Shown: positions 3,631 to 26,121, numbered from the stretch's first letter. The stretch: DNA of 64,000 nucleotides from an uncultured Planctomycetales bacterium (GCA_964474085.1 CAYYRJ010000006.1:29514-93513); one strand, 5' to 3'. Translations and numbers: made by a program. The notes: generated by a model not told the origin, from the letters alone.

Positions 3631-4443
3631 ATGCGGTCAAAAATTTTAGGTTTGGCTAGTTTTATCCTGATCAGCTTATTTTCATCGAATGGCTATGCGC
3701 AGGTGATGATCGAGCAGGGCAAGATTGTTATTAAAGCTAATCCAGCCGAGTCAGTTGTTAACACCATTACTGTTCATAACACTTCTAAACAGGCTGCAAT
3801 CCATTTGCGGGCGTATTGGGAAGATTTTGTTTATATCGCTCCTTTTGATGAAGGTAAAAAAGATTTTACAGCCGCCGGAACGGGACCTTATTCCGCAAGC
3901 CGTTTTGTTAATTTTTCACCGCAAGAATTTACAATAAAACCTGGTGGGACGCAAAAAGTTAGTTACGCAATACAAATGCCGGAGGATGCCAAAGGTGGGT
4001 ATTATGGGACTTTATTTTTAGAGGAGTCTGGGGAAAAAGCCACGTCTAAAATCGGCGTTAGTATTGTAACGCGTATTGGATCTTTATTCTTTATAGAATC
4101 AACCGATAGCAAAAAAACTGGATTAATCGATAATCATCAGGTTGCCGGTAATCAAATTACTGCGGATTTTACTAACACCGGAAACGTGATCATGATTCCT
4201 GACTCGACATATTATGTTTTAGATAAGGACGGTATGGTCGCTGACCGAGGCGACATTAAAAAGTTTTATTTACCCCCTGACAAAAAATTTTCGTATAAAA
4301 TTGACTTAAACAAAGATTTATCCGCTGGTGCATACACGCTTATTTCAACATTTGATCTTGGTGATGGCGAAAATCTGACTGATGAGTTGGATTTTGTAAA
4401 AAATGTCGACGCAACGATTGCCATTACGCCCAAGGCTCGGTAG
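3631..4443 (+). CDS. Secreted protein of about 270 aa with a PapD-like periplasmic chaperone pattern
   Basis: Signal peptide (MRSKILGLASFILISLFSSNGYA). The N-terminal domain shows the spacing of conserved hydrophobic, Asn, Trp, Pro and Asp-Glu positions seen in PapD-like or MSP-fold chaperones (ITVHNTSKQAAIHLRAYWEDF ... FSPQEFTIKPGGTQKVSYAIQMPEDAKGGYYGTLFLEE). This is inference only. Confidence 0.45.
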   Translation: MRSKILGLASFILISLFSSNGYAQVMIEQGKIVIKANPAESVVNTITVHNTSKQAAIHLRAYWEDFVYIAPFDEGKKDFTAAGTGPYSASRFVNFSPQEFTIKPGGTQKVSYAIQMPEDAKGGYYGTLFLEESGEKATSKIGVSIVTRIGSLFFIESTDSKKTGLIDNHQVAGNQITADFTNTGNVIMIPDSTYYVLDKDGMVADRGDIKKFYLPPDKKFSYKIDLNKDLSAGAYTLISTFDLGDGENLTDELDFVKNVDATIAITPKAR

Positions 4444-4566
4444 TTTGACTTTTGATCGTAACTAGTTTTGTTATATCGCTGTATTTATGAAATTTTGTTG
4501 TCTGAACAGTTTTATGTGGGAGTGCCTGTTAGGACAATGAGACTTAAAGGGGGCAGTACTTTTGTT

Positions 4567-7410
4567 ATGTTAAAAAAGTTTATTTTAGTCCTGCTTCTTT
4601 TTCTTCAGATTCTCTTGTGCCCCTCGAAGGTTCATGCCGAGTATGAAAGTATCTATAATTATTATATAGAGCTTGGTTTGGACGCTCTGTATGAAAAAAA
4701 GTTCGAGGATGCGATTTTTTATTTCAAAACGGCGCATGCCATTGACCCTTCCCGTGATAAAGCGCGCGAGTATATCAATCTCTCCAAACGTCTTAAAGAT
4801 GAACAATTAAATGGCATTGTTGCAAAATCACCGACGGATAGTTCTTGGATTTCTCTCGAAGGCCCTGATCCAGTAAAAAATACCGACACAGAGCTTTCTC
4901 ATACTGTGGCTCAACAAATGTTGCGATCTAAAATTCCCCAAGGAAGTGTTGTTCGTCCAGTCGTTAAATATGATCCTAAAGCTCCTCTTGTTAAACAAAA
5001 AAAACTTCCTGGCGCTATTATTCCATCTGGAGTGCAAACTAATTCTCTCGAGTTGCGTGATGCGCAGGAGCTGAAACTCGATGATGTGCTTTGGAGTAAA
5101 CATACAAACTTGATTTTAGAGTTGAAAGTTGATGAGAGTGTTATTTTAGTTGGTAACAATATTCAGAGATATCTTTCTGTCACAGAAGGAATATTAGAAG
5201 TATCCCGCATCAACCCGGATCGTATTAAACTTAAAGGTCTAAAGCGCGGCAATACAATTTTTTACGTTTGGGACCAAAAAGGCCGATGGATTTTTAATGT
5301 CCACTGCATCTATACCTCTGCCTCGGAACTTGCAAAATTACAAAAGCTTCAGGAGTCAGACGCACAGTTATTTAAGCTTGAGTATAGCAATAACTGGAGT
5401 ACTCTTCATAGTGGACAAAATTTAGGAAGTATGACCCGCAAATATTTAAACTTTACAAACTGGCTTGGAGTTTTTGGCGACACGCCTTACGGTAAGTTTG
5501 ATGCAGCGGTAAATACTTATATGTATCCTAATTCTACCGAGATTGTCGGGCAAACAATCGGGTTAAGCAATGGACACGTAGGACCTTTTAATGACTTTTC
5601 GCTGCGTGGTTATGACGCCTATACAGGTCTTACGAGTTTGACATTACCGGGTCGATATTTTAGAGGGGTACTTTTAGACGCGTATGCTTTTAAACATCGG
5701 TTGGCTTATTCATATTTTCATGGCCAGGATCAGTCGACAGTGATCTTTTTGGGTTCTGGGGCGAGACAGACAAGGCAGTCATATATTGAAGGCGGTAAAT
5801 TGACATTAAATCCCTACCAACCGACGAATTATTCCTTGAATTATGTTCGTGGTTGGGGGGAAGGAAGGCCTGAGGATTTTGTTAAACGGGTTATTTCAGG
5901 TCAGGTTGAGCATAAAAGAAAAGAAATCCGGCTTGTCGGAGAACTCGCGTCGGATGATAAACATTATGCAAGTACTATCGCATCCTCTTTTGAACGGTCG
6001 AATTTTAAGATGAATTTGAATTTGCGCGATATCGAAAAAGGATATCAGACGATTTATGGGCCGGCAAATGGAACAGGACAAGTCGGAACGCTGTTAAATT
6101 ATTTTTGGAATCCCTCGGGGATGGATATTTCTGGTTATTTAGATATTTATCGTGATCGCAGTTTGCCAAATCCGGACAACCCGCATGGTCTTAATTTTGA
6201 TTGGTCGAATTCTTATAATAAGCAATTGGATCATTTGTCGCAATGGGGGATAAATTTTGCGTATACAAATAACTCGCAAACTGTTTCGCCGCGACAAAAT
6301 GCGCAGTTAGGTGGCATGTATTCAAAGACTTTTGAATTAGGTCGCTTTAGAACAATTTCGCTTTTTTCTGGACCGACGATTCAATGGAGTCGTTATAAGG
6401 ACACGCCAACTGCAGACTTTGATCGCTATAATTTGCGCAGCGGGTTTCGTGCGAATTTGATCCAGAATTTGTCTTACTTTTTTACTTACGACTATATTTG
6501 GGTTCGTGATGTTGCGCGCGAGCAATTCTCGAATCCTGCAACGCTTGATACTGGTTTTTATTATCATTTTAAATTAACAGACGAACTTTATTTAACGTCG
6601 GATATTTCTTATCACCGAGAGAAATTTACATCAAGTCCGTTTGGATTTTTGTCTGGGCAAGATAATGTTTCAAATAGTTTAAGTTTGACTTATCACCCAC
6701 AACCTGGAATAGAAATTTATTTAGATAGTCAATTAAGGCATGTCATGCCACAAAATAATCGGTCATTTGACGAATTATATTTAACAACAGGAATGAAAGG
6801 TTCGTGGGATTTGCCTTTCAAATGGAATCCTTTGGGGGAAATCCGCGGAATTGTCTATAAAGATTATAACGGTAATGCAACTCAGGATGAAGGAGAGCCT
6901 GGAATTTATGGGATAAAGGTTTTGGCCGGTCATTGGGAAACATATACGAATGATAATGGCGAGTATTTGCTGACCGTACGGGCCAAGAAAGTTGCCGTGA
7001 GTTTGGATTTGCGAACAGTACCTCAGGGTTTTGTTTTTTCAACAGCGCTTTCGCGGGACGTTGAAATTCAAAACAATAAAGCTAAAGTCGTAAATTTTGG
7101 TCTGACGGCTAGATCTGGAATTTATGGAGTTGCCTATTTTGATGTGAACGGGGATGGTATGCCAAATCTAGGGGATAAATTTTTGGGTAATGTTGTTGTC
7201 CGTTTAGTCGATACCGGAGAGATAACCAAAACAGACGCCAGCGGTTCTTACTTTTTTGAAAACATTGACCCGGGGAAACACAAAATTCGAATTTCAATCG
7301 GCTCGATTCCAAAAGAATATCTGCCGGCCGTTAAGGTCGAGGACGAGGTTGAAGTCGTAGAAGGAATAACCTACGTTTATAACATTCCGGTCAAACTTAA
7401 AAAACCTTAA
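4567..7410 (+). CDS. Large (about 947 aa) outer-membrane-type protein: signal peptide, TPR-like segment, pilus-formation N-terminal-like (CpaC/RcpA N) segment, central aromatic/Asn-rich beta-barrel-like region and two C-terminal Cna-B/carboxypeptidase-regulatory-like beta-sandwich repeats
   Basis: The signal peptide starts at the ATG at 4567 (MLKKFILVLLLFLQILLCPSKVHA). The segment SVILVGNNIQRYLSVTEGILEVSRINPDRIKLKGLKRGNTIFYVWDQKGRW resembles the T2SS/T3SS pilus N domain. Alternating hydrophobic beta-strand patterns are rich in Y/W/N/S/T. The C-terminal repeats include GIVYKDYNGNATQDEGEPGIYGIKVL and GVAYFDVNGDGMPNLGDKFLGNVVVRL. Confidence 0.55.
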   Translation: MLKKFILVLLLFLQILLCPSKVHAEYESIYNYYIELGLDALYEKKFEDAIFYFKTAHAIDPSRDKAREYINLSKRLKDEQLNGIVAKSPTDSSWISLEGPDPVKNTDTELSHTVAQQMLRSKIPQGSVVRPVVKYDPKAPLVKQKKLPGAIIPSGVQTNSLELRDAQELKLDDVLWSKHTNLILELKVDESVILVGNNIQRYLSVTEGILEVSRINPDRIKLKGLKRGNTIFYVWDQKGRWIFNVHCIYTSASELAKLQKLQESDAQLFKLEYSNNWSTLHSGQNLGSMTRKYLNFTNWLGVFGDTPYGKFDAAVNTYMYPNSTEIVGQTIGLSNGHVGPFNDFSLRGYDAYTGLTSLTLPGRYFRGVLLDAYAFKHRLAYSYFHGQDQSTVIFLGSGARQTRQSYIEGGKLTLNPYQPTNYSLNYVRGWGEGRPEDFVKRVISGQVEHKRKEIRLVGELASDDKHYASTIASSFERSNFKMNLNLRDIEKGYQTIYGPANGTGQVGTLLNYFWNPSGMDISGYLDIYRDRSLPNPDNPHGLNFDWSNSYNKQLDHLSQWGINFAYTNNSQTVSPRQNAQLGGMYSKTFELGRFRTISLFSGPTIQWSRYKDTPTADFDRYNLRSGFRANLIQNLSYFFTYDYIWVRDVAREQFSNPATLDTGFYYHFKLTDELYLTSDISYHREKFTSSPFGFLSGQDNVSNSLSLTYHPQPGIEIYLDSQLRHVMPQNNRSFDELYLTTGMKGSWDLPFKWNPLGEIRGIVYKDYNGNATQDEGEPGIYGIKVLAGHWETYTNDNGEYLLTVRAKKVAVSLDLRTVPQGFVFSTALSRDVEIQNNKAKVVNFGLTARSGIYGVAYFDVNGDGMPNLGDKFLGNVVVRLVDTGEITKTDASGSYFFENIDPGKHKIRISIGSIPKEYLPAVKVEDEVEVVEGITYVYNIPVKLKKP

Positions 7411-7420
7411 TCTAAATCGT

Positions 7421-7714
7421 TTATTTGACAACTAAAGTCCTTAAAACGATTTGTTGATGCTCGCGTACGGTATTGATCGAAGTAAAATTTGTTTCCGAAT
7501 TACTAAAAACTTCATCTGTTGAATTTGCTCCTAGATTTGTCCCCAAAAGCGCATTATTTGCCTTGAGTTGACTGTCGACGTTTAGGCCGATAATCGGTGG
7601 AATATAGACCGAAAGTCTAAACTCTTGGGTAAATGTTCCCCCTGCATAGCAGATTGCTGTTACCAGAATGCTTTGGGCCAAAATGGTGAAGAAGATGAGT
7701 ATCCATCTTTTCAT
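7421..7714 (-). CDS. Small secreted protein of 97 aa
   Basis: Signal peptide MKRWILIFFTILAQSILVTAICYAGG. It lies divergent from the cluster above and is preceded on its own strand by a terminator hairpin. Confidence 0.45.
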   Translation of the reverse strand: MKRWILIFFTILAQSILVTAICYAGGTFTQEFRLSVYIPPIIGLNVDSQLKANNALLGTNLGANSTDEVFSNSETNFTSINTVREHQQIVLRTLVVK

Positions 7715-7733
7715 TTTGCACCCCTTTCTCCAC

Positions 7734-7765
7734 GAAAAAAGCCCATTGCAGCGACTGCAAAGGGC
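7734..7765 (-). terminator. Intrinsic terminator on the minus strand, 20 nt upstream of the start codon of the small secreted-protein gene (attenuator or sRNA terminator)
   Basis: Minus-strand RNA GCCCUUUGCAG-UCG-CUGCAAUGGGC has 10 of 11 base pairs, followed by UUUUUU. No minus-strand ORF lies upstream of it. Confidence 0.5.
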
Positions 7766-8000
7766 TCGTGGTTAACGAAAACCGGTTAATAAATGGTTTA
7801 CGGCAGCCAGACAACCATGCTCATTTTGGAGGTTAGGTTCACGGCTTTGCCCTGGCGCTTTTAAGAAGTGCCAGGATCCCTTGGGAGGGATGTCCTACCC
7901 TTTCGGGTAGTTTGCCTTTGCTAATTGTCACTTGGAGTATAACATGCCCAAACGCGAAAAACCAGCTAGCCTGAAAGTAAATTTTATGCATCAGCGACGG
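7766..8000 (-). promoter_or_regulatory. Candidate structured leader or riboswitch-like RNA with c-di-GMP-I (GEMM)-like sequence blocks
   Basis: The minus-strand RNA contains GGCAAAC, a GNRA hairpin (UACCC-GAAA-GGGUA), GGAC, and later GCAAAGCC. Several further hairpins are present, for example CCUGGC...GCCAGG. It is not a clean match to the consensus. Confidence 0.2.
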
Positions 8001-8112
8001 GGAGTGAAAGCGGTTTCTTTGTTGGACAGGATTTTTGTTCCAGGAGACTTCCGGTTGACCACAGGAGGTATTTTGTCTATAATCTAATACGTTTTATAAC
8101 CTATTTAAATAT

Positions 8113-8790
8113 ATGAATATCGCAGCCGCAAAAATTAAAATTAGGACTAAAGCCGTTATCTTTGATATGGATGGTGTTATTACTGATACTATGCCAGACC
8201 ATTTTAAAGCGTGGCAGAGTGTTTTGAAATTGCGCGGAATCAATGTCTCGCATTTTGACATTTATCGGCGTGAAGGCCAGCGTGGAATTGAGAGTGTTAA
8301 AGAGATTTTTCTTGATTACAATCATCCCTTTGATTTAAAAGTTGCGAATGAAATTTTATTAGAAAAAGAAGAGCTCTTTAAGAAAAACACCCGCAATCGT
8401 TTTATCGTCGGGACGCGAAGTTTATTGAAGTTTCTGCATAAAAGCAGTTTTGTTCTTGCGCTTGTTACAGGGACGGCGCGCCACGAAATGCTGCGAATTC
8501 TGCCAAAAGAAATTTATGATTTGTTTACCGTTGTGGTGACCGGTAACGATGTGATTAATGGTAAGCCATCACCAGAGCCGTATCTTTTGGCGCTTGAAAA
8601 GTTGGCGTTTGAACCAGCTGATGCAATTGTCGTTGAAAATGCGCCTTTTGGCATTGCTTCTGCCAAGGCGGCCGACTTGCGGTGTTTGGCAATAGCAACT
8701 TCTTTGCCACCCAAATATTTGCATGAGGCTGACGAAGTCTTTTTGTCGGTCAAGGATTTGCGCAAAAATATTGATTTTAGTTTAACGTAA
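8113..8790 (+). CDS. HAD-superfamily hydrolase (beta-phosphoglucomutase-like, HAD-IA)
   Basis: DxDG motif VIFDMDGVITDT. The size and C-terminal HAD motifs fit. Confidence 0.7.
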   Translation: MNIAAAKIKIRTKAVIFDMDGVITDTMPDHFKAWQSVLKLRGINVSHFDIYRREGQRGIESVKEIFLDYNHPFDLKVANEILLEKEELFKKNTRNRFIVGTRSLLKFLHKSSFVLALVTGTARHEMLRILPKEIYDLFTVVVTGNDVINGKPSPEPYLLALEKLAFEPADAIVVENAPFGIASAKAADLRCLAIATSLPPKYLHEADEVFLSVKDLRKNIDFSLT

Positions 8791-15436: not shown

Positions 15437-16501
15437 ATGATATCGCTTGAACAGATCTTTAATGCGCGCATTTTGATTGTCGATGACCAGAAACTGCACT
15501 CTTTGTTTTTAAAAGAAATCTTGCAGAAGGAAGGTTATAAAAATGTGCTGTGTTTGATGGACCCGCTTAAAGCTCTCCCGACCTCAAAAGAATTCCAACC
15601 TGACTTGATCATTTTAGACCTCTTGATGCCGCAGCTAGACGGCTTTCAGGTGATGGAGCAATTGCATGGTTTTCGACTCGAGCATTATTTACCCATCCTC
15701 GCTATTTCGGCTGACAAAAGTTCTAACATCCGGTTGCGTGCTTTGCAGTCGGGCGCGACAGATTTTTTAAACAAGCCTTTTGAAAGTATTGAAATCATCG
15801 TCAAGATCCGCAACATGATCGAACTGCGCATTTTACATAATCAAATCGCCAGTCAAAATAAATTGCTTGAATTCAAAGTTAATGAACGGACCAAAGAACT
15901 CCGGTTTACGCAATATGATATTATTCGCCGTTTAGCGCAAGCGGCCGAGTTTCGTGACGGGGACACAGGGATTCATATTATTCGCATGAGCCAGTATGCG
16001 ACACGCCTTGGGGCTGCGTTAGGTTTAAGTGAGAGTGAATGCGACCTTTTGCATCACGCCAGTCCTTTGCATGATGTCGGCAAAATCGGTATTCCCGACA
16101 GTATTTTGTTAAAGCCCGGAAAACTTAGTGCTGAAGAATTTGAAATCATGAAAACCCATACAACGATTGGCGCAAAGATTTTGGCCGGGTCCGATTCGCC
16201 GGTCATGAAGCTTGCCGAAGTTATCGCGCTGACGCATCATGAGCGCTGGGATGGCAAAGGATATCCGTATGCAATTAGCAGGGACGAAATTCCTTTTGTT
16301 GGGCAGATCTGTAGTGTTTGCGATGTTTTTGATGCTTTGACGTCAGAGCGGCCTTATAAAAAAGCGTGGAGTTTTGAGGATGCGGTTGCTGAAATCAAAC
16401 GCATGAAAAATTTGAATTTTAATCCACAAATTGTTGATCGTTTCCTGGAAATTTTAGCGGACATTAAAAATATTTACGAAAAATATACTGCTTCTTCTTG
16501 A
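15437..16501 (+). CDS. Response regulator with an HD-GYP c-di-GMP phosphodiesterase domain
   Basis: N-terminal receiver (ILIVDDQ ... ILDLLMPQLDG) and HD-GYP motifs (HHASPLHDVGK; HHERWDGKGYP). Confidence 0.85.
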   Translation: MISLEQIFNARILIVDDQKLHSLFLKEILQKEGYKNVLCLMDPLKALPTSKEFQPDLIILDLLMPQLDGFQVMEQLHGFRLEHYLPILAISADKSSNIRLRALQSGATDFLNKPFESIEIIVKIRNMIELRILHNQIASQNKLLEFKVNERTKELRFTQYDIIRRLAQAAEFRDGDTGIHIIRMSQYATRLGAALGLSESECDLLHHASPLHDVGKIGIPDSILLKPGKLSAEEFEIMKTHTTIGAKILAGSDSPVMKLAEVIALTHHERWDGKGYPYAISRDEIPFVGQICSVCDVFDALTSERPYKKAWSFEDAVAEIKRMKNLNFNPQIVDRFLEILADIKNIYEKYTASS

Positions 16502-16698
16502 ATTTACGAATTTATTATTTTATTAAGGAAAGCAGTATAATGCTCAAACGCAATGATTTAGATAATTCCAATTTCGAAGATTCATTGCGTTTGGGTATAT
16601 AAATAGTGACAGTTAATTTTATTGTGTTCTTGCTTTTCTATCGAGAAAAAGAATGTTATATTATCAGCACTGTAAACAAATGAAAGCGTTCTTTTGCG

Positions 16699-18987
16699 AT
16701 GACAAACCCTGAATCAAAAGTTTTTGCCGCACAATTACCCGTCCTTGATCTGTCTGAAGGGACAGAAATGCTCAACGATTTTTCGCGTGAGGCGCAGCGC
16801 CATTTGATTTCGGCGCGCAATTCGCTGCTTGTTCTTGAGTCTGTTCCGACGGATAAAGAATCCATCGAAAATGTTTTTAAAACATTCCACACGATTAAAG
16901 GTTTGGCCGATTTTTTAAAGCTGCATGATATTTTTTGGCTGACGGGCAAGGTTGAGATGATGCTCGACTTGATCCGCAAAGAAATTTTAACCTGTGAGCC
17001 GCAAACTGTCCATTTGATTGGGGAAGCCGTAAAAACTTTACAGAAACTGCTCGAGCTTCTTGATGAACAAATTGCCCACGATGGCAAACTGCGAAGTCCT
17101 TATCAGGACGTTGGCCCGCTTATTCAATTGATCCAAACGATGCTTGATACAAAACAAGGCGCAACGCCCGTCGCGCGATCAACTGTACGGATTTTGCCAA
17201 AAATTAATTTTGAACCTAATATGACGATCTTCCAAAAAATTGAAGATCTCACTAAAATTGCGCCCGAACATGTCAGTATTGAAAAGCCGCTTTTAAAGGA
17301 ACTTTTAAATGAATTTCAGGAAGTCACCAGCGAATTAAAAGATGCTCAGGGAAAGCTCCACGAACGCCAGCGCGAATTGATTAAAGAGCGCGAGCTGGCC
17401 ATCAAACTCACCCAGCAAGCCCAAACCGAAGCACGCAATAAGAGTGAATATTTAGCGAATATGTCTCATGAGATCAGGACGCTCATCAATGCGGTTTTGG
17501 GATTTGCATCGCTTTTGCGCGAAAGCCCGCTTTCGGATAAGCAACGCGATCATCTGCAAACCATCACCGTCAGCGGAAAAATGCTTTTGGAAATTGTTAA
17601 TGATATTCTTGATTTTTCAAAGGTCGAAGCTGGAAAATTAAAGCTGGAAAATATTGAGTTTAATCTGGAACATATTACGGAAGAAGTTTTTAAAATTTTG
17701 CGCAGTCGTATAACAAATAAAGCAATTAATCTGTATTTAGTCATTAATAGCGACACGCCGCTTATGCTTTTAGGTGATCCGACGAGGACTAAACAGATTT
17801 TTATGAATCTTTTGGACAATGCCATTAAATTTACGGAAACCGGCGAATTGGGGATGACAATTTCAAGGGCCAATGATCTTTTGCAACGTGACGGCTCTGT
17901 TTGGATACGATTTGTTGTCAAGGACACAGGGATTGGAATTCCAGCTAATCGCATCCATTCGCTTTTTCAATCGTTTTCACAAGCGACAGACTCGACTGCC
18001 CGGGTTTATGGAGGAACAGGTTTAGGATTAGCTTTGTGCAAAACGTTTGTAGAAAAAATGGGCGGACATATCGACGTGGAGTCAATACTCGGCAAGGGAA
18101 CAACGTTTACATTTTTGATTCCTTTTGGAATAGCTTCGCAAGGCAAAACATTTGAAAAACCACTTGTCAATCTTGTGCCTGATCAACTCCATGTTATGCT
18201 CGTAACTGCCCATGACAAAACTGCAGAAACGTTTATGACCAGCGCCAAAACCTTAAATGTCCAGACTGTTCACACAGCCAAAACAGCCAAGCAAGCGACC
18301 GAAGATTTGCTTAAATTAGAAGCTGATGGACAGAATTTGCCAAATTTGATTTTTATCGACACGATGTTGCCCGGTAAAGAAGCTTTTATGTTGGCCTATA
18401 AAGTCCGCCAGCAGGAACGTTACAATAAAATATATCTGGTCGCTTTAGCCAGTGATGGACGCATTGAGGTCAGTGACGATTATCAGCAGGCCGGGTTTAC
18501 CTCTTCGATGATGAAGCCGATCATTCGCCAGGAATTAGCGCAAACCATTTCACGCGTTCTAGCACAAAAACCGACCGATCACCGCGTGATTGCTCCAAGT
18601 GTTTTACAAAAAATTTCGTGTGCCGGTGTTCATGTTCTTGTCGTTGAGGATAGTCTTCCTAATCAGGAACTTTTAAAAATCCATTTGGAAACACTGCAAT
18701 GCGTCGCTGATTTTGCGCTCAACGGCAAAGAAGCCATTGAATTTTTGAAAACAAATAAATATGATATTTGTCTGATGGACTTGCAGATGCCGGTTATGGG
18801 AGGCATTGAAACATCGAAATTTATTCGCAGTGAATTAAAAAATCTTGTCCCGATCGTTGCTTTGACAGCGGCGGAAATCCAGGAAGAGCGTGAAAAATGT
18901 TTTACCGCCGGAATGAATGATTATTTAGCCAAACCTTTCGGAATTGATGAACTTAAGGAAATTATTATTAAATGTACAAAAATGTGA
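16699..18987 (+). CDS. Hybrid sensor histidine kinase: N-terminal HPt-like domain, coiled coil, HisKA, HATPase, a degenerate receiver and a C-terminal receiver
   Basis: HPt-like FHTIKGLADF; H-box MSHEIRTLINAVLGF; G boxes KDTGIGIP and GGTGLGLALCK; C-terminal REC (VLVVEDS ... ICLMDLQMPVMGG). Confidence 0.85.
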   Translation: MTNPESKVFAAQLPVLDLSEGTEMLNDFSREAQRHLISARNSLLVLESVPTDKESIENVFKTFHTIKGLADFLKLHDIFWLTGKVEMMLDLIRKEILTCEPQTVHLIGEAVKTLQKLLELLDEQIAHDGKLRSPYQDVGPLIQLIQTMLDTKQGATPVARSTVRILPKINFEPNMTIFQKIEDLTKIAPEHVSIEKPLLKELLNEFQEVTSELKDAQGKLHERQRELIKERELAIKLTQQAQTEARNKSEYLANMSHEIRTLINAVLGFASLLRESPLSDKQRDHLQTITVSGKMLLEIVNDILDFSKVEAGKLKLENIEFNLEHITEEVFKILRSRITNKAINLYLVINSDTPLMLLGDPTRTKQIFMNLLDNAIKFTETGELGMTISRANDLLQRDGSVWIRFVVKDTGIGIPANRIHSLFQSFSQATDSTARVYGGTGLGLALCKTFVEKMGGHIDVESILGKGTTFTFLIPFGIASQGKTFEKPLVNLVPDQLHVMLVTAHDKTAETFMTSAKTLNVQTVHTAKTAKQATEDLLKLEADGQNLPNLIFIDTMLPGKEAFMLAYKVRQQERYNKIYLVALASDGRIEVSDDYQQAGFTSSMMKPIIRQELAQTISRVLAQKPTDHRVIAPSVLQKISCAGVHVLVVEDSLPNQELLKIHLETLQCVADFALNGKEAIEFLKTNKYDICLMDLQMPVMGGIETSKFIRSELKNLVPIVALTAAEIQEEREKCFTAGMNDYLAKPFGIDELKEIIIKCTKM

Positions 18988-18993
18988 GAGCCT

Positions 18994-19404
18994 ATGCCAA
19001 ACACATCCAGTGGTGACAAAATCCTAGTTGTTGATGACTCTGATCTTGAGCGCGAACTTTTAATTGAAGTTCTCAAAGGGGCCGGAGTGCAAAATGAATT
19101 TTTACAAGCCCGTACCGGTGAGGAAGCCATTGAGCTTTTGGGGACGCGTTATAAGGAAATTGGGCTGATTTTGCTTGATTGGCAAATGCCGCAAATGTCG
19201 GGCATGGAATTTATGGAAGCGGTGATGAAAGTCCCTCCGGTTGCCAGTAAAATGATTGTCATGATTACAGCGTCGGGAACGGAAGAAAATAAAAAGAAAG
19301 CCAAGGGTGTTAACCCCAATTTGGCCGGGTATGTGGTCAAGCCTTATACGCCGGAATCACTTTTAGAGTCAATCCGGTCGCACGTAAAAGTAAAAAGTGT
19401 TTAA
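18994..19404 (+). CDS. Single-domain response regulator receiver (CheY-like)
   Basis: ILVVDDSDLERE ... LLDWQMPQMSGMEF ... VVKPY. Confidence 0.8.
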   Translation: MPNTSSGDKILVVDDSDLERELLIEVLKGAGVQNEFLQARTGEEAIELLGTRYKEIGLILLDWQMPQMSGMEFMEAVMKVPPVASKMIVMITASGTEENKKKAKGVNPNLAGYVVKPYTPESLLESIRSHVKVKSV

Positions 19405-19421
19405 AGAAAAAGTGGCCTCTT

Positions 19422-20000
19422 ATGGGAGCTAAAAATAAAGATTTAGAAAAATTTGCGAACTTGCTTATTAAGGGGATGGACGGCCTTTTTATGGAGCGAG
19501 GGGAGATTAAATTTAGCAAGCCACCCGAAAAAGTATTTGGTGCGATTATTGAATATAAGGGCAAAATGCAGGCTGATGGGATGGAAAAATTCAACAATGA
19601 AGCGGCTTATGTTTCGACGATTAATTATTATTTGAATGCCGTCGATATGGCCAAGAATAAAGCGGTTGGTGCGCTGATCGTTTATGTCGAACAAACTTAT
19701 ATGCCTAAACTGATGAAACTGCTCAAATATCCGCCGATTGATGATGAAAACGAAAACGCTCTTTTGGATTCCTGCGGAACGCTTTGCAATATTTTGGCGG
19801 GGCGTTTCAAATCTGAAATTGCATCCGCCGGATATATTGAGCTTGAGATGTCGCATTTTTTGACATTCCGTAACAGTGCCGTTCCGGGGGTTGATTTTTG
19901 TGCCAGTGAGTTTGACCTTTATACAATCAATTTTTTAATAGAGAATGAAAAACGCATGGTTATCGATATGAGTATGGGCATTGTCCCGACGAGAAAATAA
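19422..20000 (+). CDS. Hypothetical protein, possibly a CheX/CheC-like response-regulator phosphatase
   Basis: The segment ALLDSCGTLCNILAGRF resembles the E/DxxxN...G motif of CheC/CheX-family phosphatases, and the gene is embedded between REC and Hpt genes. The match is weak. Confidence 0.3.
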   Translation: MGAKNKDLEKFANLLIKGMDGLFMERGEIKFSKPPEKVFGAIIEYKGKMQADGMEKFNNEAAYVSTINYYLNAVDMAKNKAVGALIVYVEQTYMPKLMKLLKYPPIDDENENALLDSCGTLCNILAGRFKSEIASAGYIELEMSHFLTFRNSAVPGVDFCASEFDLYTINFLIENEKRMVIDMSMGIVPTRK

Positions 20001-20001
20001 T

Positions 20002-20340
20002 ATGATTTTAACTGCCCAACAGAATGCCGAAAGTTTAAAAATACCCAAGGATATTTATTTGCGTATTTTGACAAAAGCGGTTGAGCAAACACAAAAGGAT
20101 ATTAAAGATATCGAAGAGGCTTTGCCGTTCTCGGATTTTGAAAAAGTCCAGTCGATTTCTCATCGCTGGAAAGGTGATTATGACAATATGCGCATTACGT
20201 CTTTGGCGATGGTTGCCCGAGCTCTCAATCAGGAAGTGAAAGCCAGCCGCGACAAGGAAAAAATCATTGCATTTTTGACTCAATTTAAAAATATGTTTTT
20301 TGAATTAGAAACAGAGTTAAACAATATCATAAAAGCTTAA
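20002..20340 (+). CDS. Histidine phosphotransfer (Hpt) domain protein
   Basis: SHRWKGDYDNMRITSLA matches the Hpt H-x-x-K-G pattern. The ATG at 20002 lies within the ORF-track ORF that starts at a TTG at 19981. Confidence 0.55.
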   Translation: MILTAQQNAESLKIPKDIYLRILTKAVEQTQKDIKDIEEALPFSDFEKVQSISHRWKGDYDNMRITSLAMVARALNQEVKASRDKEKIIAFLTQFKNMFFELETELNNIIKA

Positions 20341-20352
20341 AGCGGAGATCTT

Positions 20353-20715
20353 ATGCCCGACGAAAAAGGTGTCATTAACATCGATGTTAAACAAGTCAGT
20401 GAAGAGTTAAAGATCCGTCCCGAAATTTATTTAAAAATTACGGCAAGTTTTGTCAATAGTCTCTCGGGAAAACTCAAGATTTTGAGCGATGCATTGTCAA
20501 CCAATGATCGGGACCAGATGCGCATGACTTTGCATGAAATCAAAGGCACCGCCGGAAATTTACGCCTGCGTAATCTAACGGCTGTTGAATCGGTTATGCA
20601 TGATGCCGTTAAAGCCGGTGAGCCGCAGACGCGATTGACGCAATATTTTGAAGCTTTACGACGGGAAAGCGAAAAGCTGCAGCTTTATTTTAATACTTTA
20701 GGAAGCCGAAACTAG
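20353..20715 (+). CDS. Histidine phosphotransfer (Hpt) domain protein
   Basis: Classic Hpt motif LHEIKGTAGNLRL. Confidence 0.7.
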   Translation: MPDEKGVINIDVKQVSEELKIRPEIYLKITASFVNSLSGKLKILSDALSTNDRDQMRMTLHEIKGTAGNLRLRNLTAVESVMHDAVKAGEPQTRLTQYFEALRRESEKLQLYFNTLGSRN

Positions 20716-20747
20716 CAAGTTTTACCGGTTATTTTGCGGAGAATGTT

Positions 20748-21149
20748 ATGAATAGAATTTTAGTTGTCGACGATAATTTTGAAAACCGAATGCTTTTGGC
20801 CGAAATTTTGCGTGAAATTGCCGTTTGTGATTTTGCGGCCACGGGCAAGGAAGCCATTGAAGCGTATAATATGTCCATCCAAAGGCAGGAGCCGTATAGC
20901 TTGATTCTGCTGGATATTGAACTTCCCGAGGTCAACGGATTGGAAATTTTGCATCGGATCCGCGAGAGTGAAAAATCTGCAGGCATTTCTTTAGGGGACG
21001 GAGTCCCGATTATTATCGTCACCGCCTATGAAAAACGTTTTGTCGAAGCTTTTAACAAAGGCTGTGACGATTATATCCTCAAACCTATTGATACCGACGT
21101 TCTCTTATCAAAAATCGCCGCAATCCTTGAAAAAAATGACGATGCGTAA
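20748..21149 (+). CDS. Single-domain response regulator receiver (CheY-like)
   Basis: ILVVDDNFENR ... ILLDIELPEVNGLE ... ILKP. Confidence 0.8.
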   Translation: MNRILVVDDNFENRMLLAEILREIAVCDFAATGKEAIEAYNMSIQRQEPYSLILLDIELPEVNGLEILHRIRESEKSAGISLGDGVPIIIVTAYEKRFVEAFNKGCDDYILKPIDTDVLLSKIAAILEKNDDA

Positions 21150-25737: not shown

Positions 25738-26121
25738 ATGGTCAAACAAATCCTCGAAGATCGTCGTCAAGCTATCCGCGCCCAGCGGATTTTAAGCATT
25801 CAATATCGGGTCGTTTCGAGCAAATCCCGCAGCATTGATAAGCATTGGCATTTGTCAACAACGCATGATATGAGTGCCACGGGCTTGTCGTTTTTGTCGG
25901 ACATTGTTTATCGTATCGATGATGTTTTGGAACTTCACGTTGTGATGTCCGGCGTTTTAGATGTTTTTAAAGGTTATGGGCAGGTTGTTCGAATTGACAA
26001 GAAAGACACTGGTTCATTTTGTTTTGTTGCCGTCAAATTTGTCCAGTCTCCGCGCGCAGTGCCACGGCCGCGTCGATCAAAAGCATCTGCGGTAAAATCG
26101 CCAAAGCGCTTTAAGAAATAA
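25738..26121 (+). CDS. PilZ domain protein (putative c-di-GMP receptor)
   Basis: RxxxR (RQAIR) followed by DxSxxG (DMSATG) at the expected spacing. Confidence 0.55.
   Translation: MVKQILEDRRQAIRAQRILSIQYRVVSSKSRSIDKHWHLSTTHDMSATGLSFLSDIVYRIDDVLELHVVMSGVLDVFKGYGQVVRIDKKDTGSFCFVAVKFVQSPRAVPRPRRSKASAVKSPKRFKK

Follow-up and report, generated by a model that had tools for sequence, protein, structure and literature searches.

Results

The locus and its promoters

We analyzed a stretch of 64,000 nucleotides (the window; coordinates are counted from its first letter). The feature of interest lies on the minus strand, upstream of a gene (7421-7714) that encodes a 97-amino-acid secreted protein with a signal peptide (MKRWILIFFTILAQSILVTAICYA/GG...LRTLVVK). 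The gap between this gene and the divergent plus-strand gene had been described as long for an intergenic region, and 398 bp do separate the minus-strand ATG (7714-7712) from the plus-strand ATG (8113). The initial annotation also described a minus-strand terminator hairpin followed by six U residues, 20 nt upstream of the start codon, and stated that no minus-strand ORF lies upstream of it. The hairpin, the U6 tract and the spacing are all present in the sequence, and we found no credible minus-strand ORF upstream of the leader. The 246-nt leader was predicted to fold more stably than 200 of 200 dinucleotide-shuffled versions (z = -3.5).

The leader has a recognizable promoter (7936-7965, minus strand), consisting of the -35 sequence CTGGTT (7965-7960), an 18-nt spacer, and the extended -10 sequence TGT-TATACT (TG at 7944-7943, hexamer at 7941-7936). 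A TTGGTT-type -35 and a TGnTATACT -10 were found at a constant distance from the aptamer in all of the homologous leaders described below. From this conserved promoter spacing, we infer that transcription starts at approximately 7929/7928, about 8 nt before the first strand of the putative ligand pocket. On the plus strand, a promoter-like site (TTGACC-17-TATAAT, 8055-8083) appears to be the promoter of the HAD hydrolase gene and would account for the other end of the gap.

Upstream of the -35 of the leader promoter is the sequence GAAACCGCTTTC (8017-8006, minus strand); several orthologs have a perfect palindrome, GAAAGCGCTTTC, in its place. In the window, GAAACCGCTTTC is followed by CCGTCGCTGA (8000-7991, minus strand). 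Both sequences are kept in distant orthologs and lie between the divergent promoters. The region from 7991 to 8017 resembles the operator site of a dimeric transcription factor, so the gene for the 97-amino-acid protein may be subject to a second layer of control.

A c-di-GMP-I type aptamer in the leader

Sequence blocks resembling those of the c-di-GMP-I (GEMM) aptamer had been pointed out in the leader, with a comparison to Rfam proposed as the check. We found that 7926-7799 (minus strand) matched the c-di-GMP-I family, RF01051, with a score of 39.8 bits (gathering score 35). The match covered all 87 model positions (1-87), with E values of 2.7e-4 in the whole-window search and 2.1e-6 in the local one, and it was the sole Rfam hit in the 64-kb window in a scan at gathering thresholds. 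The c-di-GMP-II family (RF01786) gave no match on 7650-8150, even at E values up to 10. A custom covariance model, R1, matched 7930-7793 (minus strand) with 152.6 bits.

The blocks are where they had been reported: GGCAAAC at 7916-7910, the GAAA-capped hairpin CUACCCGAAAGGGUAG at 7910-7895, GGAC at 7895-7892, and GCAAAGCC at 7850-7843. Both their order and their spacing had been called non-canonical. The spacing is indeed unusual, with 41 nt instead of 0 between GGAC and GCAAAGCC; the order, as seen in the RF01051 alignment, is canonical. That alignment places 60 nt where the consensus has 19. Of these 60, 19 are the P1b hairpin plus GAC, and the other 41 are an insert. That is, the odd spacing is due to a discrete two-hairpin insert, and because this insert is penalized, the match exceeded the gathering score by only 4.8 bits.

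We mapped the numbering of the Vc2 riboswitch onto the leader using landmarks from PMC11705072. The pocket strand, GCAAAGGC (7914-7921, minus strand), contains G7916, equivalent to G20, and G7915-C7914, equivalent to G21-C22. It is followed by the P1b hairpin, CUACCC-GAAA-GGGUAG (7895-7910, minus strand), with its GNRA tetraloop at 7904-7901, and then by G7894, A7893 and C7892, the last of which is the equivalent of C44. The next part of the core (7805-7850, minus strand) contains G45-C46 (7850-7849), the AAA linker A47-A49 (7848-7846), and P2 (7846-7805); A7846 is part of the linker and also opens P2. The linker lies within GCAAAGCC and includes A47, the intercalating base, which was not imposed on the window by the pattern that we used to search for related leaders. 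P2 contains a motif similar to a tetraloop receptor (CCUAAC...CAUGG, at 7837-7832 and 7819-7815), and G7812 is the equivalent of G83. The aptamer ends in the C92 segment (7801-7804, minus strand), made up of G7804, C7803 (C92), C7802 and G7801. Thus, G20, A47 and C92, which contact c-di-GMP in Vc2, are all present. The elements for tertiary contacts, namely the GAAA tetraloop with the receptor-like motif in P2 and the C44-G83 pair (C7892 and G7812), are also present by sequence.

One helix appears to be missing. We found no complementarity between 7929-7917 and the sequence after C92 that could form P1a, and the variable 5' positions in the homologous leaders were not compensated. We rejected a canonical P1a between the 5' and 3' ends on both grounds. 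The RF01051 model does not include P1a. With no canonical P1a, coupling to the pocket is less certain. The transcript is predicted to begin with GACAA(U) (7925-7929, minus strand), which was conserved in 13 of 14 leaders and is complementary to UUGUC (7810-7814, minus strand), a stretch that lies in the 3' strand of P2 and contains the equivalent of G83. Pairing between these two sequences may be part of the ligand-free fold.

GEMM-Ib riboswitches for 3',3'-cGAMP, found in Geobacter, have the same fold and belong to the same Rfam clan as the aptamer described here. They carry a distinguishing adenine at position 20. The window has a G (G7916) and not an adenine at this position, and we therefore rejected a cGAMP riboswitch of this type; the G points to c-di-GMP, and not cGAMP, as the ligand. 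In PMC6140456, selectivity for cGAMP is linked to an adenine.

Together, the score, the core sequence, the covariation described below, and the genetic context appear to place the leader in the class, and we consider it very likely that it is a c-di-GMP-I class aptamer. That it binds c-di-GMP rather than another ligand we judge to be probable.

Related leaders and covariation

We searched for leaders of the same architecture using the pattern GGCAAAC, 11-25 nt, GGAC, 20-50 nt, GCAAAGCC, 6 nt, CTAA. The pattern matched at 19 places in species-representative genomes (nine of them in Candidatus Omnitrophota MAGs and five in Planctomycetes-labelled MAGs) and at 21 places in metagenomes. These matches, together with contigs encoding proteins of the same family, gave 14 orthologous leaders, each of which precedes the same small gene. 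The order of promoter, aptamer, terminator, ribosome-binding site and ORF was kept in all 14, which bears out the riboswitch or attenuator geometry that had been proposed for the window. About 20 more distant aptamers with the two-hairpin insert precede other genes. The search pattern imposed G20, C44, A47 and the receptor sequence CUAA, and conservation of these positions among the distant variants is partly a matter of ascertainment. C92 was not imposed; of the 34 aligned aptamers with sequence at this position, 31 retained it.

A covariation analysis of homologous leaders had also been proposed, and it gave strong support for the structure in two alignments. In an alignment of eight close homologs (MAFFT, with the structure specified by us), 95.5% of cells were paired, compared to 28-49% with slid partners, and 14 pairs had changed on both sides, eight of them in hairpin B of the insert. 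In an alignment of 34 distinct aptamers made with R1, 94.8% of cells were paired, compared to 26-45% with slid partners, and 27 of 34 pairs had changed on both sides; this alignment was fitted to the model and the pair counts are therefore somewhat inflated. Five of the six P1b pairs had changed on both sides across the 34 sequences, and the 2-bp base of P1b next to the pocket (G21-C46 and C22-G45) was GC/CG in 32-34 of the 34.

The aptamer and expression platform of L014 are identical to those of the window, and an identical protein is encoded. L004, a 645-nt ENA contig with 1.2x coverage (positions 1-645, compared to 7356-7921 of the window), encodes the identical 97-amino-acid protein and has an identical expression platform. 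Its aptamer differs from that of the window at approximately 20 positions, many of them compensatory, and the switch-over falls within the invariant GUCUGGCUACCGUAAACC segment. This pattern could be due to recombination between strains or to a chimeric assembly. The MAGs that contain the closest leaders, L011 and L014, are labelled "uncultured Planctomycetales bacterium", whereas Candidatus Omnitrophota is the label of the other close relatives; such labels may not be reliable for these TPA MAGs.

Two hairpins between the C44 and G45 equivalents

The 41-nt insert is predicted to form two abutting hairpins located exactly between the equivalents of C44 (7892) and G45 (7850). C44 pairs over a long range with G83, and the G45-C22 pair lies at the base of P1b, next to the pocket. 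Hairpin A (AUCCC-UCCCAA-GGGAU; 7876-7891, minus strand) makes up the first half of the insert and hairpin B (CCUGGCAC-UUCUUAAAA-GCGCCAGG; 7851-7875, minus strand) the second, abutting G45. A P1 internal loop of 3 nt without a branch was not found; the window has a 41-nt branch instead, which the covariance model tolerated. The two extra hairpins would turn the P1 internal loop into a multi-helix junction.

Both hairpins showed strong covariation. All five pairs of hairpin A had changed on both sides in the 34-aptamer alignment, with 93.5% of cells paired. For hairpin B, eight of nine pairs were compensatory among the eight close homologs, as were all six outer pairs in the 34-aptamer alignment (94.7% of cells paired). 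Each hairpin had four to six pair types in the larger alignment. When inserts were folded alone, exactly two hairpins were obtained in 30 of 32 cases, mostly abutting and at most separated by a few linker nucleotides. The exceptions were L019, for which the minimum free energy (MFE) structure is a single long hairpin, and a misalignment (L030:10843). The sequences and loops of the two hairpins were not conserved among members. Hairpin A is frequently capped by a GNRA loop in other members, though not in the window.

The same two-hairpin insert was seen in about 30 aptamers; these come from metagenomes and from Omnitrophota-type and Planctomycetes-labelled MAGs. One ortholog of the window leader, L045, has no insert and was recognized by Rfam as a canonical c-di-GMP-I aptamer with 60.5 bits. 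In contrast, orthologs with the insert scored 38-44 bits, and two, L051 and L053, were below the gathering score. Based on this comparison, the insert appears to be an optional, conserved elaboration that hampers detection. L051 (positions 75-214) and L053 (638-786) have the same gene downstream and strong matches to R1, and are true family members; the insert and, in L051, also a large insertion in P2 bring them below the gathering score. Since true members are missed in this way, the subclass is under-annotated. Canonical and branched aptamers are found together in some cases. The contig L009 has a canonical c-di-GMP-I aptamer (4390-4472, 81.9 bits) and a branched one (6133-6269) within 2 kb, and the MAG contigs L030 and L038 likewise carry both forms. 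Thus, the two forms coexist in one genome.

It is conceivable that the branched aptamer senses another ligand, such as a different cyclic dinucleotide, that it takes a second input, or that the insert binds a protein or RNA. The insert is directly beside the binding pocket, its structure is conserved in about 30 aptamers, and the frequent GNRA loop on hairpin A suggests an additional tertiary contact. In addition, known GEMM-I variants switch ligand through small changes (PMC6140456). However, the determinants of specificity are of the c-di-GMP type (G20 and not A20; C92), and the lack of conserved sequences or loops in the hairpins is unlike a specific binding site for a ligand or protein. 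Also, the insert-free, canonical leader of L045 precedes the same gene, which argues for the same ligand. We consider a different or additional input quite improbable, and c-di-GMP remains the ligand that we favor.

The expression platform

The intrinsic terminator (7735-7771, minus strand) has a lower stem with the 5' strand CCACG (7771-7767), a hairpin (7765-7741), and the U6 tract (7740-7735). The hairpin, GCCCUUUGCAG-UCG-CUGCAAUGGGC, was also reported by a consensus scan. The predicted energy was -14.4 kcal/mol for the core and -22.3 kcal/mol with the lower stem (CCACG/CGUGG) included. The 3' strand of the lower stem, CGUGG (7734-7730), overlaps the Shine-Dalgarno region GGAGAAAGGGG (7731-7721); the two together occupy 7721-7734 of the minus strand. 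The U-tract is enclosed by the lower stem, which reaches the GGAG of the ribosome-binding region. One compensatory change was found in this stem, in L005 (CCAUG/CAUGG). On the plus strand, the reverse complement of P1b (7895-7910) followed by a T-rich run also received a terminator-like score.

Between the aptamer and the terminator is a linker with a hairpin of its own, CGUAAACC-(11 nt)-GGUUUUCG (7776-7802, minus strand), that starts directly after C92, at C93, in the place usually taken by the 3' strand of P1a. Folds of the homologs also gave this hairpin. In L045, L049 and L053, the stem is shorter on both sides, AACC/GGUU instead of AAACC/GGUUU (as read manually, since the MAFFT alignment is out of register here), and the most distant member, L051, has the same hairpin with a different sequence (CGAUGA/UCAUCG). 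The linker (7767-7802, minus strand) was near-invariant in close homologs, more so than the helices of the aptamer, and it can fold into one of two hairpins that exclude each other, CGUAAACC/GGUUUUCG and UUAAC/GUUAA, of which the latter is compensated in L033. The conservation of 7802-7767 is greater than the switch model described below requires, and the linker may be a relay or pause element.

The predicted switch

We propose the following model. Without ligand, the 5' pocket strand GCAAAGG (7921-7915), which includes G20, G21 and the A-run, would be free. It would pair with CCUUUGC (7763-7757), in the 5' arm of the terminator, once that arm is transcribed. This antiterminator would allow RNA polymerase to read through into the gene for the 97-amino-acid secreted protein. 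With c-di-GMP bound, the pocket strand would be locked in the aptamer and the terminator (7765-7741 plus U6) would form, its lower stem also covering the edge of the ribosome-binding region, and the gene would be OFF. The antiterminator helix uses G20, G21 and C22 and so could not coexist with a formed pocket. Because ligand binding would exclude the antiterminator, the model predicts an OFF switch.

Folding predictions were consistent with such an antiterminator. In transcripts truncated before the 3' arm of the terminator, the MFE structure paired GCAAAGGC (7921-7914) with GCC(C)UUUGC in eight of eight homologs. The duplex in the window has a predicted energy of -10.8 to -11.2 kcal/mol. In a shuffle control, 70 of 2000 shuffled expression platforms did as well as that of the window (3.5%, a modest result), and for the family members 1-25 of 1000 shuffled arms were as good. 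The antiterminator is a long-range helix with a span of about 150 nt. The sequence of the pocket strand is partly fixed by the aptamer consensus (AAAGG), so some of the complementarity may be coincidental. For the full-length leader, the terminator state was predicted at -77.4 kcal/mol and a forced antiterminator state at -71.4 kcal/mol. This difference of 6 kcal/mol fits the pattern expected for kinetic control.

The best evidence for the antiterminator comes from L045, which is the only independent covarying lineage. This leader has concerted changes in the pocket strand (UUCGAAAGG) and in both the 5' (CCCUUCGAA) and the 3' (UCGAAGGG) arms of the terminator. Cognate duplexes had predicted energies of -10.8 and -9.5 kcal/mol, compared to -3.6 and -4.8 kcal/mol when the strands were swapped. 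In addition, the 5' arm of the terminator was invariant in 12 leaders and the loop and 3' arm varied, a pattern that fits an arm with two partners. The variant riboswitch L032, which is unrelated, has the same complementarity between pocket strand and terminator arm (-12.9 kcal/mol; 1 of 1000 shuffles as good). The match was weak and non-specific in L051, the most distant family member. Among the distant variants, an antiterminator of this kind was found only in L032 and, weakly, in L020; the others have other platforms or no terminator.

We also considered three other pairings. Pairing of the 5' arm of hairpin A with GGGGUG near the Shine-Dalgarno sequence, which appears in the MFE structure, was dropped because it is not conserved in L008, L033 and L036. 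Pairing of the 5' arm of the terminator with AAAGGG near the ribosome-binding site was dropped because it is not conserved. The AACC repeats in the linker were rejected as mimics of P2, as they do not track changes in P2.

The same riboswitch could have the opposite polarity, with c-di-GMP preventing termination and inducing the secreted protein. Many GEMM terminators compete with the aptamer such that the ligand raises expression (Weinberg 2007, PMC1950547), induction of surface and adhesion factors by c-di-GMP is common, and the gene adjoins one for a protein with SdrD_B domains. In contrast to that design, there is no overlap here between the terminator and the 3' side of P2, and the terminator is found 38 nt downstream of C92, beyond a separate hairpin. 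Only the pocket strand is conserved as a competitor for a terminator arm, and this strand has to be free of the arm before the pocket can form. We found no alternative pairing that a bound aptamer would release to break the terminator. We consider ON polarity unlikely. We judge it likely that control is by conditional termination, and moderately probable that the switch is OFF.

The terminator is the thermodynamically favored state of the full leader, and a short RNA would thus be abundant. It is possible to read the leader as a stand-alone small RNA (a terminated transcript of about 190 nt), a ligand-independent attenuator, or the decayed relic of an aptamer. Terminated riboswitch leaders that act in trans are known from other systems. 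However, at all 14 loci the leader immediately precedes one and the same small ORF, whose ribosome-binding site is conserved, and the invariant pocket nucleotides and covarying helices indicate selection on a working aptamer. A role in trans would add to a function in cis and not replace it. We regard these readings as highly improbable compared to a riboswitch acting in cis. Taken as a single statement, that the leader is a branched class I c-di-GMP riboswitch that uses an intrinsic terminator and has OFF polarity, the model has our moderate confidence.

The regulated gene and its neighbors

The 97-amino-acid protein has a mature part of about 73 amino acids with the conserved stretches SVTIPAxxGLNVPDP and HQNIxLRTLVVR. 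Its relatives formed two clusters in a single-sequence search and 21 in a profile search, among 5.8 billion. The two clusters with a name that bears an organism are "Candidatus Omnitrophica" hypothetical proteins, and the family appears to be tiny and restricted to Omnitrophota. The protein had no match in Pfam or NCBIfam. An AlphaFold2 model made from the 21-sequence family alignment (pLDDT 57, pTM 0.23) was too poor for a fold search. At JGI, the exact protein is labelled "Na+/phosphate symporter", which is implausible for a secreted protein that has no transporter domain; the label looks like an annotation error.

The small gene is always convergent with a gene for a protein of 950-1050 amino acids that carries SdrD_B and CarboxypepD_reg-like domains. 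In the window, the neighbor encodes a 980-amino-acid protein with SdrD_B/CarboxypepD_reg matches (Pfam/NCBIfam), and there is also a 270-amino-acid protein with a weak fn3_5 match. Beyond these matches, the searches yielded no useful assignment for the small protein or its neighbors. The stop codons of the gene for the 980-amino-acid protein (plus strand) and the small gene (minus strand) are 10 nt apart (7410-7421) with no terminator between them, and plus-strand read-through from the larger gene would be antisense to the smaller. GEMM riboswitches had been said to control pilus and adhesin genes commonly. In the window, the regulated gene, which encodes the secreted protein, is not recognizable as either; among the distant variants, L020, L022 and L023 do precede type IV pilin-like genes.

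The window was said to encode an HD-GYP phosphodiesterase and a PilZ protein, and Pfam searches agreed on both: a REC plus HD_5 protein with the GYP motif present (15437-16501) and a PilZ protein (25738-26121). The former is part of a dense phosphorelay cluster (15437-21149) that also includes a hybrid histidine kinase (16699-18987; domains Hpt and REC), two Hpt proteins, and two REC proteins that stand alone. This cluster probably feeds into c-di-GMP turnover.

Discussion

Our results point to a c-di-GMP-I riboswitch with an unusual aptamer. The leader has much in common with Vc2, the tfoY leader of Vibrio cholerae (RF01051). The two share GGCAAAC, P1b with its GAAA loop, GGAC, GCAAAGCC, a P2 with a tetraloop receptor of the 11-nt type, G20, A47 and C92, the C44-G83 pair, and the position in a 5' UTR. 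Vc2 is an OFF switch in which formation of the P1 helix represses translation (PMC11705072), and the predicted polarity of the leader described here is the same. Unlike Vc2, the leader has a 41-nt two-hairpin insert, no detectable P1a, and a local hairpin right after C92. Its predicted control is by termination, and the 5' pocket strand would be the strand that switches. P1 was described by Weinberg et al. in 2007 as stems of 2 and 6 bp around a 3-nt internal loop, and the common GEMM design is a terminator that is in competition with P2's 3' side (PMC1950547); in the window, the terminator would compete with the 5' pocket strand instead. With its branch at C44/G45 and an apparent lack of P1a, the leader departs from the published description, and we regard it as a structural variant of a known riboswitch class.

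Control of surface or motility genes by an intrinsic terminator is also found for other members of the class, Cd1 from Clostridioides difficile and Bc1 and Bc2 from Bacillus. Cd1 is an OFF switch that works by termination. These three are canonical three-helix aptamers from Firmicutes, whereas the variant described here has a branched P1 and is found in Omnitrophota-type MAGs. Terminator-based control is described for Bc1 in PMC11218506.

We found no description of an insertion or branch in c-di-GMP-I aptamers in the literature that we could search. It is possible that the branch, together with a local 3' hairpin that replaces P1a, defines a topologically distinct subclass of c-di-GMP-I riboswitches that is widespread in Omnitrophota and Planctomycetes-labelled MAGs, is partly invisible to Rfam, and is read out through the 5' strand, with the extra helices tuning affinity, kinetics or specificity or providing a second input. 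We offer this broader view tentatively. The insert costs about 20 bits in Rfam, and the custom model R1 recovers members, L051 and L053, that were missed.

The GEMM-I fold appears to tolerate and conserve a two-helix branch beside its ligand pocket, and this leader and its relatives may be a natural test case for tuning by peripheral helices. The riboswitch would be the first concrete effector of c-di-GMP that our analysis assigns to Omnitrophota-type bacteria, which form a candidate phylum known largely through metagenomes. Its target, a small secreted protein specific to the lineage and paired with a large SdrD_B-domain protein, emerges as a surface function that may be under the control of c-di-GMP.
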